From a virus (taxonomy: Duplodnaviria; Caudoviricetes): a stretch of DNA of 64,000 nucleotides. The translations under genes and the position numbers were made by a program. Location of the stretch: IMG/VR virus record IMGVR_UViG_3300031555_004297, one strand, 5' to 3'. The notes beneath the pieces were generated by a model. It saw nothing but the letters and a program-made list of their open reading frames with translations, did not search any database and was not told the origin of the DNA. Of this stretch, positions 773-10,689 are shown in pieces (within the stretch, counting starts at the first letter, position 1; each line of letters begins with the position of its first letter).

Positions 773-3700
773 TTAGATAAGACTTATATACATAAGAATC
801 TCTTCGCAAATCAATTCAGGAAGAATTGTAATTTGCTTACCATTTAGCTCATCGTCTTCATAATCGATTACTTCAAATTCAGAGCTCAAGATTACAGCAA
901 TAATACTAAGAATATGCTTTTCAATCTTCTCATTCTGATATTTTCTCTTAATCTCTTCCCATAATGGAGAAGACTCGAGCTTGGTCAACTCTTTCTTATT
1001 TACATTCTTACGACTTGCAAGACGAATAACTTTCGAGCTGACAATATATGGCAACAAGATCATTCCTGATGCTTCAAGAATTCTCTTAGCTGCAATAATA
1101 AGAACCACATAATCATCAAGATTAATGGCATTGATTGTATTTGTCATTATTTCTTCATATAAGGTCGTTACTCTTATACCGCTTATTATAAAGCTGCTGT
1201 ATATCACTATACAGATGAGACTATATCTTCACCCATTACATTTGCATTGGGGTGGATGCCATTTCCACTCACTCGAGTGTACTCCCGTTCGGGATAGTCG
1301 TTGAACGTTTAAGATGGTAGTGGGAGAGGGGCTCGAACCCCCAGTTAGGACCTGGATTAGAACCAGACCTGTAAACCAGCTCTAATATCATGAGGATCTC
1401 TCATAAAGATATAAGGCTGCTAGTTGCGTTTTCCTAATTTCGCCATCCCACTATATATCTTACTTCGCTGCTGATTGTCTCATTGAGAGTTCCCAGCAAT
1501 TAGACATCTAGTTTGCCATATATTCCTATATGGGGAAACATATACTCTATCTCCAAAATATTTAAAGAACAAATTAAACACTAAGTCACGTTGGAACGAA
1601 TTGACAGTGCATTTTCCTCCAGAGCTTAGACGGTGCTTATAAAACTGAATTTCGTCTTGATCAAACGGTCCATACATCATCTTGATTTGATTCATGGCAT
1701 CGTCTGATGCAACCTGATTTTGGATAAGAAGCGATTCATCCTGCTTTTGAAGGAATGATTCAAATTTATCAAATTCACTCGTTGTGTTCACGTAGGTCGC
1801 TAATCTACGCAGTTCTCTTATGAACTTCTTTAGGTGCTATCTAAAGACCAGACTATATCATCATCTTCAGCATTATCTGATCAGATGTTTCCCATTTCGA
1901 GCTCGCTTAAGCCCTACTCCATTTCTGGATAGTCGTTGAACCTTTATTAGAATTATTTATGACGATTATACATTCTATATCTACCGGTTTTATAATCGTT
2001 TTGTGAGAAATTGTATTTTTGCGATATATGCCGCCATGCCACTCCCTTATATATCGTAGATATTAAGGCAGAAGCATCTGGTGAATCCACCCCGCATGCT
2101 AAAGCTATTTCTGCATATGACAATTTATGTTCATCTAAATGTCTACATATCATTTCAGCTTGAGCTTCAGTAATAATAGCTTTTGGAGAATCCTCTCCTT
2201 TAACATTGAGATCATTTGCAAATGCATGTACATTATTTTCAGAATATGTAGCCCATTCTAAATTCATAAAGAAAGGATTAGATTTGTCTCCATCTAAATG
2301 ATTTATTATAAGACTCTGATCTCCTGGAACAAAATACATGCCTACAATTCGATGCAAAAGAAATGTTTTAGGTTCTCCATAAACATTTAATGATACGGCA
2401 ATATAATTATCTGGGCGTGGTGTTAACTTTAAAAACCGATTTAATTTCTTATCAAAGATTCGTCCAAAATTAGATACTTCATATCTATTTGGATAGATTC
2501 CTTCAATTTTATCTTGTTCGATAGGAACAAAGACTTCGAAGAATTCTAAAGGATAATTTAGATCATTAGGGTTATCTAACATATTTATCACTCCTTTCTT
2601 TGTTTTATTAATAATTCTAATACTTGGCTGCTGATTGCCCATTATATATCAATCCTTAGAGTTTCCTCATAGATCATCTCATAACTTGTTTCCGACTTTC
2701 GTCCCCATATAGGCTTATGAGCTTTAGGGTGTCCCAGCAATTAAGGAAATTTTATTTTTCGCAATATTTCTATTACGCTGAACTAGTAAAGTTAATTCAG
2801 ATCTTCATCTCTGCGGCTAGAGCTTAGCGATACGAAACTATATTCGTATTCAATCATTATCTTCATATAAGGTCGTTACTCTTATACCGTTCTCTTACGA
2901 ACTGCTGTATGTTTCCATACAGATGAGACTATATCATGATCCGCCTATATTGATATAATTCATTATAGGCGGACCTCTCCCATTTCGAACTCACTTGAGC
3001 CCTACTCCATAAAGGATAGTCGTTGAATATTTATCAAAAGGTATAATTGCAAGATATGTTTGTATATCTTCGTTTATGCTTAATATTTGATAAGGTTCTT
3101 TTAAATTGCGCCATATCCTTAGACATATTATCCATACCTAATGCTTTAAGTATAAGATCAAAAGATATATCTATATCTGTTTCAAACATAGAGCATATTT
3201 TATTTATTTGATCATCATTAAAAACTCGATTATGTCTGCCTTGTGGGAATTTATAGTCTTTTGAAATATGAGACCATAATTTTCCTTTCTTAATGGCAGA
3301 TATAAGAGCTATAGGATTTGATGATATGAATTCTAATCCAGTTGCATATGAAATCTCAGAAGCTGATAATCTATCTTCTTCTAACAATCTACATATTTTT
3401 CTTACCATGTTTTCATCTAGTAAACTTTTGATAAGATTATTATCATATGCATGACGAATATTCTCAGATCTGGTTATCCATTCAAGATTTCTATAATAAT
3501 TGTTTCTCGGATTTCCATCTTTGTGATTAACCTCAAGTTCTGGAGAATACCCAGGACAGAAACATTTTGCAACAATTCTAGATACAAGAGCCAGAATACC
3601 AGTTCCATCTTTAAGTGTTAGATTAACATAAGCTCTATTTTTAAATTGACCCAAATAATTAAATGAATATACCTTACCATGTTTATCATAATCTATATTA

Positions 3701-5703
3701 GATATATAGCCATAATTGCTAACTATATATCTATTCTCAACTATACCGGGAACAATATTATCCGTTATCGGAACCCAAATTTCATCTATATATTGCATTA
3801 CTTTATATAGCATAATTGTTCCTCCTTATTGATACTTTACTGCTGATTAGCATGCTACTTTTAGTAGTTTAGCCTTCCAGCAATTAGAGAGATTTGCTAT
3901 ATACATTACTGTATATAGGGACATTACTCTATCCAATATTTGAAATCCCGTGTTGCGCAAAATACTTTTATAGTTGAGATGCACGAGATTTCCATCGTAA
4001 CGATACTTCGATTATACTTTATGTCGCCATAAAGACTAGACTATATCTTGATCTTATATTCTATTACCGTTTATAAGATCCTCCCCATTTCCATTTGACT
4101 AATATCAAATGTACTCTACTCAGTTACTCACTAGAATCTTTCTTTCTAGTTACCTTTTCGATAGTCGTTGAACGTTCCTCTTGCGAGGCTTCGCTGCTGA
4201 TTGTCTCATTGAGAGTTCCCAGCAATTAAAGGAGTTTATTATTCATAGTGTCACCACTATGCTGCCCTAAGCAGTTAAGGCATAATATTAATAAGCACAT
4301 TCTGCACTGATTGCAGAGTGTGGATTGTGGTATCAATACCACGAATGTCCTGCATATTCCAAATTGTCTGATTACGTTTAGCTGTTCTCAAGACATTAGA
4401 GATTGCAGTTTCATAAAGTTTGCTATAAATGTCTACATTATATTTCTCGTTATACTTAGAGATGAGCATATCATAAACGCTTAAGATAAACTCACTCGAG
4501 TTAGTAATCTTACGAGCATACATAAAGTGACACATTAGCGGAATCATACAGTTCATAACGACAGATGCTTTCATCATGATCTGTCCATGTCTCGAAATAT
4601 TCACATGAGTCGCATACTCATGCAGTCTATAAGTTGTATGATTAGTTGGTCTTATAGACGTCTCCACGGTTTGCATGGAGTCTAGACTATATCTTCACCT
4701 TCGGCTTACTGACCCGTTAAGGTGCTCCCCATTTCGGATCGAGCATTGATCCTACTCTACTAATCAGATATATCTGAACCAGGGGCGATATATCTGCTTT
4801 CGATAGTCGTTGAACCTTCGTCCTCTGCCCTTAGCCCTTTTCTTATGTAAACTACCGTGCGGGGGTTACGAATAAAAGGGATTGTTTTTGCATGTCACTG
4901 CGAAAATAAATAAATCGTTCAAAAATAGGTTTGGTACGGATGAGAGGTATGAACTCTCTAAACTTCTATAAAGATCCGCATATGAATATTTGACATGCGT
5001 ATATTAATCGTTCATGGGCTGACAGGGGTGCTTGGCTGCTGGTTATTCATTGTTAATATTGGTTAGGATTTCTCCATACAACATCTCATCACTTCTTTCT
5101 GAATTTCTTCTCTATCGGAGCCTGACACATAGGGCCTTCTCCTGTAGCAGATGAGCTTTAGGACTTCCCAGCAATTAAAGGAGTTTATCCTGCTATATTT
5201 CTATATCAGGGTGACTGTTCTCAATCACTATATTGCAAATTAGGATTCTTAATATTCTTATAGGTTAGATTAAGGGAATAATTGTCTCTATTCATAAATC
5301 CTATTTTAAGGGCAATAGAGCCATCCATAATATAACGATACAAGTCATAGAAGAATGCCTCGCGAGTATAAGCCGGCTCGTAATCGATAAGATACTTAAG
5401 ACGGCAATACATAAATACAAGTTCATGATCTTTATCATAGAACTTTTCGAAATAGTTCAAGTACTGAACTGTATGAGTTCTCATTTCGGGATTATTGTAA
5501 GATCTCTTGGTGCTCATCATAAAGCTATCCAAGCTCGCATTTTGTTCCATACCAAAAAAAGATGACACGTCGAGCATGATCGCCCCTCGGATGGTCTTAA
5601 AGACTTCATCTTCAGGACTTGGCACCCATGTATCAATAGGTTGGAACTCCAATGGTTCAAAGAACTCCATTGGTGACAATAATTCTTGTTGTTTAGAACT
5701 CAT
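773..5703 (-). CDS. sigma-like promoter-specificity subunit of non-virion RNA polymerase (AR9 gp226/phiKZ gp68-like); spliced from 6 exons: 5224-5703, 4278-4592, 3931-4008, 2795-2854, 1549-1779, 773-1144 (511 aa)
   Basis: Removing five group I introns gives one continuous frame; all junctions are phase 0 (YSD|RHG, IMP|KYR, ILD|IEY, DLN|SEF, FGD|TNT). Motifs KRSYNN, LQYSD..KASVVM..IP.MCHF, KLYE, I.PK, DEDLNSEFDKFE, NSFQ, EEILMYISLI match gp226 as recalled. ATG at 5703 with AAGGAGG RBS and an early-type promoter upstream. Confidence 0.85.
1145..1548 (-). ncRNA. group I intron 5 of sigma-like gene (404 nt, tRNA-like element in L6)
   Basis: P1 GGAGAT|…GTTTCC with U.G; core motifs; ends …ATAATG|ACA. 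Confidence 0.9.
1315..1452 (-). tRNA. tRNA-Leu-like (class II) cloverleaf with extended, non-canonical anticodon arm, nested in intron 5
   Basis: Acceptor AGTGGGA/TCCCACT + A + CCA; D-arm GCG-AAATTAGGAAAA-CGC; T-arm GGGGG-TTCGAGC-CCCTC; long variable arm; anticodon stem ACTAG/CTGGT encloses 40 nt rather than 7. Confidence 0.75.
1780..2794 (-). ncRNA. group I intron 4 of sigma-like gene (1015 nt, HNH ORF in L6)
   Basis: P1 CTGAAT|…GTTCAG with U.G; core motifs; ends …CACAACG|AGT. Confidence 0.9.
1953..2582 (-). CDS. intron-encoded HNH homing endonuclease (NUMOD4-like + HNH_3 + C-terminal HTH)
   Basis: YEVSNFGRI, LLHRIVGMYF…INHLDGDKSNP…NLEWATYSENNVHA; ATG 2582 with AAAGGAG RBS; inside intron 4. 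Confidence 0.9.
   Translation of the reverse strand: MLDNPNDLNYPLEFFEVFVPIEQDKIEGIYPNRYEVSNFGRIFDKKLNRFLKLTPRPDNYIAVSLNVYGEPKTFLLHRIVGMYFVPGDQSLIINHLDGDKSNPFFMNLEWATYSENNVHAFANDLNVKGEDSPKAIITEAQAEMICRHLDEHKLSYAEIALACGVDSPDASALISTIYKGVAWRHISQKYNFSQNDYKTGRYRMYNRHK
2855..3930 (-). ncRNA. group I intron 3 of sigma-like gene (1076 nt, HNH ORF in L6)
   Basis: P1 GGAT|…GTCC with U.G; core motifs; ends …ATAATG|ATT. Confidence 0.9.
3034..3813 (-). CDS. intron-encoded HNH homing endonuclease
   Basis: YIVSNYG, VSRIVAKCF…VNHKDGNPRNNYYRNLEWITRSENIRHA; two C-terminal repeats; inside intron 3. Confidence 0.9.
   Translation of the reverse strand: MLYKVMQYIDEIWVPITDNIVPGIVENRYIVSNYGYISNIDYDKHGKVYSFNYLGQFKNRAYVNLTLKDGTGILALVSRIVAKCFCPGYSPELEVNHKDGNPRNNYYRNLEWITRSENIRHAYDNNLIKSLLDENMVRKICRLLEEDRLSASEISYATGLEFISSNPIALISAIKKGKLWSHISKDYKFPQGRHNRVFNDDQINKICSMFETDIDISFDLILKALGMDNMSKDMAQFKRTLSNIKHKRRYTNISCNYTF
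4009..4277 (-). ncRNA. group I intron 2 of sigma-like gene (269 nt, no cargo)
   Basis: P1 TGCCT|TAA-CTGC-TTA-GGGCA; P/Q/R/S core motifs; ends …AATCG|AAG. Confidence 0.9.
4593..5223 (-). ncRNA. group I intron 1 of sigma-like gene (631 nt; structured RNA with mini tRNA-like element in L6)
   Basis: P1 GTGAT|TG-AGAA-CA-GTCAC with U.G pair at the 5' splice site; core motifs AATTGCTGGGAA, AACCAGCAG, GTTCAACGACTA, AAGATATAGTC; ends in G (…TTTCG|AGA). Confidence 0.9.
4932..4980 (-). ncRNA. mini tRNA-like element (acceptor stem + T-arm + CCA) nested in intron 1
   Basis: (T)GCGGAT-CTTTATAGAAGTTTA-GAGAG-TTCATAC-CTCTC-ATCCGT-A-CCA. Confidence 0.6.
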
Positions 5704-5736
5704 TTTGTAAACCTCCTTGATATATTTTTCCACAAT

Positions 5737-5745
5737 TATAATATA
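5737..5745 (-). promoter_or_regulatory. early-type promoter TATATTATA upstream of sigma-like gene
   Basis: Same motif at 12194-12202, 15779-15787, 19299-19307. Confidence 0.65.
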
Positions 5746-5749
5746 CAAC

Positions 5750-6550
5750 TCATTTCTTTTTTATACTTTTTACGGTTTTAGAAATGGGTGTACGTTTTAC
5801 GCTGTTAGTAGTCTTAGTGGTTCTGACATTACTCGATGTCTGAGCCATTCTGATATTACCAGAGGGGCTTACTAAGTTCCTTTCAGCAGAGGCTGCTTTT
5901 CTAGCCTCCTTTTTCTTTTCGTTAGCTTCTTGCTTGCGCTGTTTTTCTCCGAGTTCTTGACGTAAAGCAATCTTGTCATCAGTATGCATTACAGATTGAA
6001 CCAAGCGGCTCTCGCTATAAGGCATGCCATAAGATGTGTACATCGACTTAGAAAACAAATTCTTTGTCTTCATAAAGAGATACGCAAAATACAAGATCTT
6101 GCTATATCCAGGAACTTCATATGGATTCTTTTCTTTAGGATCTTTCTTAAGAGCAAGTTTCGAAGACTTCGGCTTTAAGTCTTCAAAAAACAGGTCATTC
6201 TTCAGAAATACTCTAAGATAAGTAAAGACAAACGCTGGGTCGTTGGAGAAGAATTTGACATAGTAGTCCTGTAGGCTGGGTGATGATCTTTTAGCCGCAT
6301 CATTTGTGTAAAATAGAATAACAGCATCATAGTAGAAGTCCTTTACGGTTTCAGAAGGTACCTTAATATGTGCTACATAACGATCCTTCTTATTATCTAC
6401 ATGCAATGTGAAATCTATCTTACCAGCCTCTCTTAGAAATACTTTATCAAACTTCTCTGTGTAGAGCTGCTTAAATAGATCTCTTTGAGAAAATACAGCA
6501 TTGTGTTTACCCATTGGGTTATCTATGTACTGCTGGAATGTCATTTCCAT
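5750..6550 (-). CDS. hypothetical protein with basic C-terminal tail (late promoter upstream)
   Basis: Long ORF, RBS GAAAGGTGG, AACA-N6-TA at 6582-6593. Confidence 0.7.
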   Translation of the reverse strand: MEMTFQQYIDNPMGKHNAVFSQRDLFKQLYTEKFDKVFLREAGKIDFTLHVDNKKDRYVAHIKVPSETVKDFYYDAVILFYTNDAAKRSSPSLQDYYVKFFSNDPAFVFTYLRVFLKNDLFFEDLKPKSSKLALKKDPKEKNPYEVPGYSKILYFAYLFMKTKNLFSKSMYTSYGMPYSESRLVQSVMHTDDKIALRQELGEKQRKQEANEKKKEARKAASAERNLVSPSGNIRMAQTSSNVRTTKTTNSVKRTPISKTVKSIKKK

Positions 6551-9166: not shown

Positions 9167-9524
9167 ATTCTAGAACTATTTCAAGAAATGGAACGACTCT
9201 TACAGCAACATCTCGGCCTTCATTATCAACACCATTTAAGAATAATCCATTATGGCGATCTAATGTATGCCCTTCTACTTGCTCGATGTTATTTACAGAT
9301 TTTGCATGGTTTTCAAAAGGAATTATTTGATTGACACCCTCAACCCAACGATCGAGAATGGCATCGCAACCCGCATACTTATAGATTTGAGTAAGAAGAT
9401 TATCAATTGCAATACAAGGAAATCTCAATTCCTGAGGCCAAGAATCATTATTCGTATTGAATTCAATATAATTAATATGCTCAGATTTGATAAAAAGCCT
9501 TATAAAATTCCTAAGTTTAATCAT
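9153..9524 (-). CDS. hypothetical protein, paralog of 10682-11053
   Basis: TNNDSWPQELR vs TDNETFPKELR; translationally coupled to rtcB. Confidence 0.65.
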   Translation of the reverse strand: MIKLRNFIRLFIKSEHINYIEFNTNNDSWPQELRFPCIAIDNLLTQIYKYAGCDAILDRWVEGVNQIIPFENHAKSVNNIEQVEGHTLDRHNGLFLNGVDNEGRDVAVRVVPFLEIVLEYVQE

Positions 9525-10689
9525 TATTTTCTCCTTCTGCTTTGAAATTGTAAATAGGTTTAATTATCTTCTCAATTTCTACAGTATCTTTAATACGATC
9601 GGTAATATAATCCAATGACTTATAAGCCATCGGAGATTCATCGATTGTGCTATGAGAAATAGAACTTGAGTAAATGCCTTCCATCTCTTTCTTATACCGA
9701 GTAAGAGTAAGACTATTTCTAGCTTGCTCTCTTGTAAGAAGACGTCCAGCCCCATGAGGAGCAGAATTGTTCCAGTCAGAATTTGATTTGCCCTTGCCGA
9801 TAATGCAACCTTCCTTCATATTAATTGGAATGATTACCTGGTCGTGTTCGCATGCACGAATACAACCTTTTCGTAGATGGTAGTAAACAATTGGATTACC
9901 ATCTTCGCCTACTCCATCGCTAGCAATTCGAATTGAATTATGAGTACAACCTATTTGATCATATGAGATCTTCCATTTCATTGCTTTGCAGATCTCGTTT
10001 ATAATAGCTCCACGATTCTCACTAGCAAAATTAGAGACTCTACCTACATCCTGGTAGAAGTCCATCGCCTGATTACCTGTAAGATATGCAAACTCGTAAG
10101 GAATTTCAGGATGCTGAGCTTTGGCTTCTTCTTTATAATAGTCGATAATTTCTGTACCAAGATGTCGGCTGCCACTATGAACGATAAGCCAGTATTCGGA
10201 TTTTCCATTCATATCTTCAGAAATTCCGAGCTCGATGAAATGATTTCCGCCACCAAGAGTTCCAATACTGCAAAGAGCTTTATCTATATTAAAGTTTCGA
10301 CAAGTCAAGACATCGAGAACAAATTCTCTAATCCATACTTCTCGTTCTTTGATATTTTTATCACGAATATTCATTCCATAAGGAATTTCAGATCTGATAA
10401 ATTTATCAAGCTTTTCAAGTGCAATCTTGGGTTTACCGGCAAGCTTAACAGCAGATACACCGCATCCTATATCTCCACCAAGAAGAATAGGAGAAATTTT
10501 ATTTCGACTCATCAGACTGGTGCCAATTACGCAACCAGGACCAGCATGAACGTCGGGCATAATTCTTATAATAGCATCCTTTCCAATATCGCTATCGAGA
10601 AGGGCTTTAATCATTCCGAGAGAGCTCGGATCAATTTGATCTGTAAATACTTTACAGTTTTCAGACAAGATAGTTTCATATTTAATCAT
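9517..10689 (-). CDS. rtcB: RtcB family RNA ligase (3'-phosphate/2',3'-cyclic phosphate to 5'-OH)
   Basis: MPDVHAG, GGDIGCG, GTLGGGNHFIE, HSGSR, HN, SAPHGAGR, DESPMAYK. Confidence 0.95.
   Translation of the reverse strand: MIKYETILSENCKVFTDQIDPSSLGMIKALLDSDIGKDAIIRIMPDVHAGPGCVIGTSLMSRNKISPILLGGDIGCGVSAVKLAGKPKIALEKLDKFIRSEIPYGMNIRDKNIKEREVWIREFVLDVLTCRNFNIDKALCSIGTLGGGNHFIELGISEDMNGKSEYWLIVHSGSRHLGTEIIDYYKEEAKAQHPEIPYEFAYLTGNQAMDFYQDVGRVSNFASENRGAIINEICKAMKWKISYDQIGCTHNSIRIASDGVGEDGNPIVYYHLRKGCIRACEHDQVIIPINMKEGCIIGKGKSNSDWNNSAPHGAGRLLTREQARNSLTLTRYKKEMEGIYSSSISHSTIDESPMAYKSLDYITDRIKDTVEIEKIIKPIYNFKAEGENND

Follow-up and report, generated by a model that had tools for sequence, protein, structure and literature searches.

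Phage T5 encodes RNA1 (AY543070), annotated as 'tRNA-like stable RNA with unknown functions', and RNA2, and the tRNA region of phage T4 gives rise to RNAC and RNAD (species 1 and 2), stable RNAs of 139 and 119 nt whose role is unknown (PMC3014915). Phage group I introns, including those of phiKZ-like phages and of the AR9 polymerase, hold homing endonuclease ORFs in their peripheral loops (PMC3984707), and a tRNA gene within the intron of a protein gene has a precedent in the tRNA-Arg of the cox1-1281 intron of Ophiostomatales mitochondria (PMC7902536). Also related are the 'enigmatic' tRNA introns of Lak megaphages, which are short inserts in the anticodon loops of phage tRNAs (PMC6784885; repeated in PMC13037316), and the allo-tRNAs, which have a class II-like body, sometimes with five stems, and an anticodon untied from identity (PMC7609411).

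The 138-nt element considered here was found in the window, that is, the whole 64,000-nt stretch of phage DNA that was analysed. By its layout it belongs with T5 RNA1 and T4 RNAC, with no homology that we could discern beyond the tRNA frame. T5 RNA1, of about 140 nt, shares the five-arm arrangement: it has a T arm, a second hairpin, a D arm of the Leu type and, instead of the anticodon arm, a long irregular arm whose base is 6 bp. However, it is free-standing in a tRNA cluster and has no CCA at its annotated end, RNA1 and RNA2 resemble the element on the D-arm side only (local alignment p 0.03 and 0.003) and no more closely than an ordinary Leu tRNA does, and a covariance model of the element does not detect T5 RNA1. 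T4 RNAC has a T arm and a tRNA frame with an expanded non-decoding core, but RNAC and RNAD give no significant alignment (p 0.27), lack a Leu-type D arm and are not intronic. The surrounding intron is of the same class as the endonuclease-bearing phage introns, except that those carry an ORF and this one a tRNA-shaped RNA. The Ophiostomatales case concerns an ordinary tRNA in an organelle, in contrast to a look-alike in a phage; Lak inserts may themselves be tRNA and have intron-free alleles, whereas the insert proposed for our element has no tRNA marks, and no insert-free allele was seen among the 16 copies and the L004 lineage compared, a narrow sampling; and allo-tRNAs are defined by an 8/4 or 9/3 acceptor/T split, whereas the element has 7/5, which led us to reject an allo-tRNA assignment. 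Judged by its layout and conservation, the element is a real, conserved variant of a known but unexplained kind of RNA.

Genomic setting of the element

The host is a jumbo phage, and the look-alike RNA sits within a group I intron of a gp226-like gene. The relevant features of the window are:

773-5703, minus strand: gp226-like gene, split by five group I introns, two of them with HNH ORFs
1145-1548, minus strand: group I intron 5 of the gp226-like gene, 404 nt (Rfam RF00028, 79.6 bits)
9517-10689, minus strand: RtcB gene (PHROG 1075)

An intronless relative of the host protein (L018) matched PDB chain 7s01_A (464 aa) with an E value of 3.8e-9, and an intronless relative also matched PHROG 25005. 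We take this chain to be AR9 gp226, the promoter-specificity subunit of the non-virion RNA polymerase (nvRNAP). AR9 gp226 matches the host protein, phiKZ gp68 itself gave no match, and further phiKZ-type polymerase subunits are encoded in the window's genome. A phiKZ gp54 query for chimallin found no match in the genome, which is a weak negative. The genetic code is standard: 13 TAG stops are used in 189 long ORFs and read-through adds no coverage, so stop-codon recoding was ruled out. At the end of the contig of the 185-kb record (G000) there is a tandem run of a 15-nt unit, possibly an assembly edge.

The number of introns in the gp226-like gene and their cargo differ among close relatives. 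Intron 5, the last of the five, has its P3-P7 core with the Q, R and S motifs, and its P1 (with a U.G), P10, P7 and terminal G are intact, P1 and P10 being read from the sequence. Joining the exons across 1548-1145 restores the frame and gives a junction peptide identical to that of the intronless relative L011. With core and splice sites intact, intron 5 is predicted to be splicing-competent, and self-splicing would restore the gp226-like mRNA.

Structure, conservation and probable origin of the element

The element and its parts, all on the minus strand, are:

1315-1452: tRNA-Leu-derived look-alike, 'type A', 138 nt, cargo of loop L6 of intron 5
1446-1452: acceptor 5' strand, pairing with 1325-1319; leader A(-2)U(-1)
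1426-1445: Leu-type D arm, 3-bp stem and 12-nt loop with A15 and G18G19
1375-1424: expanded arm replacing the anticodon arm (6-bp basal stem, 3x1 loop, 8-bp AU-rich helix, bulge, apical hairpin)
1415-1408 with 1389-1382: 8-bp AU-rich helix of the expanded arm
1418-1386: proposed 33-nt insert, within the expanded arm
1384-1382: proposed anticodon TAG, within the expanded arm
1351-1367: second hairpin ('variable arm'); its 7-nt loop is conserved and resembles UU-CUA-RU
1345-1350: linker that could pair over 6 bp with 1437-1432 of the D loop (candidate pseudoknot)
1326-1342: T arm, with G50.U64
1315-1325: acceptor 3' strand, A73 and CCA, the final A also pairing in P6a

The sequence-only reading had described a tRNA-Leu-like cloverleaf inside intron 5, and its acceptor, A73, encoded CCA, Leu-type D arm, T arm and 40-nt loop are all present at 1452-1315. 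Its location was likewise borne out, and can be specified as L6, between the Q and R motifs of an intron that Rfam recognises. The acceptor stem had been called perfect, and all its 7 bp are Watson-Crick; the T arm contains a G.U pair. The acceptor/T split is 7/5, and A15-U48 and G18G19 are present; the assignment of A20a is ambiguous in a 12-nt D loop. Where canonical tRNA-Leu has a 7-nt loop on a 5-bp anticodon stem, the element has a 40-nt loop on a 5-bp stem, and its variable region is 32 nt long as against 11-15 nt in the canonical Leu tRNAs of the compared loci. The possibility of a tmRNA was rejected, as the acceptor has U3-A70 instead of G3.U70 and ARAGORN called no tmRNA.

The element is the sole match to the combination of T arm, CCA, acceptor and D-loop GG in the 185-kb record, and there were none in 100 shuffled genomes, from which we conclude that it is not a chance occurrence. 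Its folding z-score is modest (-2.1). ARAGORN left the element uncalled at default settings, including with the intron option that the sequence-only reading had suggested, and there was no Rfam tRNA call. A search for a promoter of its own gave no excess over shuffles, and exact matches to possible antisense targets in its own genome were no longer than 14 nt, which is the chance level.

The 138-nt form is present at intron 5 in 16 loci, with no indels among the 16 copies. There is also a diverged 135-nt copy, in L004, which lies in a different phage in a beta-prime-subunit intron at the catalytic DFDGD and is identical in every sample read. An exact D-arm scan of viral contigs gave no match, BLAST against cultured phages returned just intron core or T-arm scraps, a genome-contig scan gave four chance matches, and a scan for the Q motif plus a Leu D arm gave nothing new (L152 was a false match).

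Comparison of the copies indicates that compensatory changes in the stems have preserved the element. In a test on five alleles, both bases differed in 8 pairs and 96.8% of cells were paired, versus 37-44% with the partners slid; the signal of this test comes mostly from the one diverged lineage of L004, and its shuffle control is inflated by related sequences. Three of the seven acceptor pairs are altered on both sides in L004. Within the expanded arm, five of six basal-stem pairs vary and all stay paired, seven of eight pairs of the 8-bp helix are invariant, and the apical hairpin varies freely. Between lineages the parts fall into a fast-changing set (43-67%: acceptor 6/14, basal stem 8/12, apical hairpin 12/20) and a slow set (0-12%: D arm 1/21 against L004, 8-bp helix 2/16, second hairpin 1/15, T arm 2/18, ACCA 0/4), and R57 of the T arm varies between G and A only. 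The candidate pseudoknot has 6 bp in the window, 5 bp in L004 after a matched two-sided change and 3 bp when the two are crossed; p was 0.01-0.09 for each statistic on a pairing that was found after the fact.

Among canonical tRNAs, the element comes nearest to the intact Leu(UAG) found in intron 1 of the gp226-like gene in relatives, which is also the closest to the element's D arm. One of the two best alignments to this tRNA, together with a match to L026, places its anticodon loop and 3' stem on 1375-1357, that is, after the long arm and away from the TAG of the sequence-only reading. The motif matching the ancestral loop, which was defined after the fact, occurred in 0.05% of shuffles. What remains of the anticodon loop and 3' stem strand of the ancestral Leu(UAG) thus probably lies in the second hairpin and 1375-1368, and such a relic would explain the CUA-like loop without invoking a suppressor.

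Exchangeable cargoes of the L6 loop

The sequence-only reading missed that L6 takes tRNA-type cargoes of several interchangeable kinds, of which the element is one. The same loop in relatives holds an intact tRNA-Leu(UAG or UAA), a second look-alike, a minihelix, HNH genes, or an intron-bearing tRNA-Leu with an HNH gene. Those referred to by position are:

L095 544-655 (also L105, L108 and L110-L113): second look-alike, 112 nt, G73, long third arm, in another allele of the intron 5 loop
Window 4932-4979, minus strand: 48-nt minihelix (acceptor, T arm and CCA) in L6 of intron 1, a position occupied in relatives by an intact 86-nt tRNA-Leu(UAG)
L149 2793-3506, plus strand: group I intron with tRNA-Leu(UAA) in L6
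L030 1098-1023, minus strand: intact tRNA-Thr(UGU) in L6 of a group I intron
L032 13333-13260, minus strand: intact tRNA-Thr(UGU) in L6 of a group I intron

The 112-nt look-alike (7 loci) is unrelated to type A, scores 33.7 bits as an Rfam tRNA without an anticodon arm and may be Ser-like; in yet another intron 5 allele, L6 holds the start of an ORF. Other introns of the gp226-like gene hold an intact Leu(UAG) or Leu(UAA) in L011, L017, L027, L089 and L092, and introns 3 and 4 have HNH ORFs in L6. The tRNA of L149 is split after U34 by a second group I intron, which itself carries a 147-aa HNH gene (2860-3303), a four-level nesting. Most tRNA cargoes of the window's clade are Leu, and in three relatives one of just two tRNA genes is intron-borne. 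L030 and L032 apparently come from an unrelated phage group, with genes that resemble T4-type head genes (portal and prohead protease) as judged from their ORFs. The T loop of the minihelix is decayed in L191/L192, and for this reason (L191) we dropped the minihelix as proof of selection on the tRNA top half. Two further observations concern L6 content: a third odd tRNA-like cargo (L034 1247-1137, minus strand; 111 nt, U73, bulged T stem) lies between Q and R motifs at a contig end, and ORFs of about 100-120 aa without Pfam matches form a third cargo type (L092 at about 4660-5040 and 5515-5845, L058, L101). No tRNA-shaped shell was found in the HNH cargoes examined. Within the open-access literature, which was the scope of our search and leaves subscription papers outside it, intron-borne tRNAs were found in fungal mitochondria only and none in phage introns, and we found no prior description there of a tRNA or look-alike cargo in a phage intron loop.

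Interpretation

The explanation we favor, with about as much doubt as confidence, is that the element is a non-decoding RNA derived from tRNA-Leu and carried as exchangeable L6 cargo, which would be released by RNase P and might serve, possibly leucylated, as a decoy or scaffold. The intact tRNAs that relatives have in the same loop make release from L6 plausible. Following self-splicing, host RNase P would cut at +1 and 3' trimming would halt at the encoded CCA, leaving a stable 138-nt RNA; we base this on the presence of an encoded CCA in all listed cargoes and of A(-2)U(-1), a leader optimal for RNase P (PMC10731613), in 13 of 16 cargo entries, although the entries are not independent and the DNA is AT-rich. 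A break in P6 need not block splicing, and group I introns split at P6 remain splicing-competent (PMC11879131). LeuRS would probably charge the RNA, since the Leu identity set (A73, A15-U48, G18G19) is present and E. coli LeuRS disregards the anticodon arm (PMC9976931). The anticodon-less, possibly leucylated mimic that the sequence-only reading offered as one of its two options fits this picture. An arm of about 19 bp with a variable 4-5-nt tip is expected to be unable to decode; unless the RNA is recut, this geometry rules decoding out, and the look-alike is almost certainly unable to read codons. Our guess as to the final step is that the two conserved inner elements, the 8-bp helix and the second hairpin, are displayed on the tRNA frame to a protein; the RNA would most probably act in this way to decoy or inhibit a host factor that binds or attacks tRNA (cf. 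T5 RNA1 and T4 RNAC). Phage tRNAs are known to counter tRNA-cutting defences, in a study on ordinary tRNAs (PMC11555353). Three findings speak against this explanation: (i) the sister allele of intron 5 with an unrelated look-alike suggests that the type A sequence is dispensable; (ii) the intron-1 cargo is reduced to a minihelix in the window's genome, so cargoes can rot; and (iii) the T stem is broken in three alleles (U.U in L027, G.A in the L104 group and a bulge in L004).

The T-stem defects are the reason that we retain, as a possible but clearly less probable account, the idea that the element is a relic, a captured tRNA-Leu inactivated by insertion and kept since L6 content must fold on itself to spare the ribozyme. 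The decaying minihelix in intron 1, the ancestral Leu(UAG) loop remnant downstream of the long arm and the interchangeability of the cargo are all consistent with this. A relic does not readily account, however, for unpaired tRNA signatures (D-loop GG, A15, the T loop with R57, A73 and CCA) that are conserved while the stems turn over, for sequence conservation in the two inner elements, or for the lack of indels.

Less probable still is that the 33-35 nt after C32 are cut out by a protein and a ligase seals a tRNA-Leu(NAG). The sequence-only reading had proposed this as a mini-intron masking Leu(UAG) and possibly sealed by the phage RtcB, and deletion of the 33 nt does leave the C-U-UAG-A-G loop it gave. 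This option largely fails the check that the sequence-only reading itself had set, as the TAG is not conserved in homologs: at the first position of the presumed anticodon, 11 loci have G (GAG), 5 loci including the window have U, and the L004 lineage has A (AAG). We keep this alternative, at a low probability, because all of these variants are still Leu; in every tested allele only one deletion produces a Y32-U33-NNN-R37 loop, the anticodon in that loop is a Leu one (UAG, GAG or AAG), and the varying base would be the wobble base. Furthermore, the main Leu codon of the phage, CUU (39 per 1000), is the one that GAG and AAG would read, and at a relaxed score ARAGORN finds a Leu(gag) with a 33-nt intron in the L104 allele. 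Its Leu(tag) call on the spliced, 105-nt form of the element is obtained only by taking the internal hairpin as the T arm, which is a caveat. A37, which the product would carry, is found in the tRNA-Leu(UAG) of phage T5 (L180 5625-5709), an exception among canonical Leu(NAG) tRNAs.

Against splicing, the varying base covaries with its partner in the insert, which is C-G in 10 loci, U.G in L195, U.U in the window type only and U-A in the L004 lineage. It thus behaves as part of a helix strand, and the 3' cut would land within the 8-bp helix. As a component of the explanation we favor, and with the same even confidence, we regard the TAG as a helix strand and not a masked anticodon. The product would have A37, as against G37 in 8 of 9 canonical Leu(NAG) tRNAs of the compared loci (PMC6795141), a C32-G38 pair and a variable region of 27-32 nt rather than 11-15 nt. 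RtcB (PF01139) was detected in one of five genomes, G000, and the other four related genomes are without it, including G001, which is 90% complete and carries the element; the RtcB gene and the look-alike are not linked across relatives. No known splice motif was found: (i) a bulge-helix-bulge is lacking, the two bulges being on a single strand with 8 bp between them, and with no match to the EndA-type PF01974 in G000 or G001 an archaeal-type protein-spliced intron was rejected; (ii) the 33-35-nt insert has no T loop or CCA, unlike a Lak-type tRNA-shaped intron; and (iii) the insert is far too short for the group I intron of tRNA-Leu(UAA), whose core follows U34 and of which L149 is a true case.

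Similarly improbable is that the cargo acts in cis on the intron, either as an RNase P handle for cutting up the excised ribozyme or as a tRNA-Leu shape that brings in LeuRS to assist splicing. Yeast LeuRS is a splicing helper, and a bias toward Leu among the tRNA cargoes of the clade would suit such a role. The CYT-18 synthetase is likewise a group I splicing factor in Neurospora mitochondria (PMC3984707). Nevertheless, splicing can dispense with the cargo, as L6 of sister introns contains either an HNH gene or nothing but a hairpin of 20-30 nt, and the CCA is internal until processed. Finally, excision of the long arm to leave the second hairpin as the CUA anticodon arm of an amber suppressor is very improbable. 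The loop does fit Y32-U33-CUA-R37 in both lineages, and Rfam weakly aligns the hairpin as an anticodon arm, with 16.7 bits, which is short of the gathering score. Against this, the genome's code is the standard one, the boundaries of the segment to be excised show no conservation, and the same letters match the 3' stem strand of an ordinary Leu(UAG).

Significance

The non-decoding cargo that we favor bears on annotation, since nested tRNA-like RNAs are missed by tRNA and intron callers, to the point that the 185-kb record is without any tRNA by ARAGORN or Rfam. A broader proposal, which we advance only tentatively and consider more doubtful than not, is that phage group I introns are mobile expression cassettes for tRNA-shaped RNAs and that the element is a selected, leucylated five-arm RNA, perhaps pseudoknotted, that neutralises tRNA-targeting defence. 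If this is true, HNH genes, functional tRNAs and non-decoding look-alikes that can be charged replace one another in L6, and a defence-neutralising role would be a first function for the old class of T4 RNAC and T5 RNA1. The natural alleles of this one slot (intact tRNA, two look-alikes, minihelix, bare hairpin and HNH gene) are a test set for the role of phage tRNA-like stable RNAs. If L6 cargo is released, group I introns can benefit the phage and would not be merely parasites.
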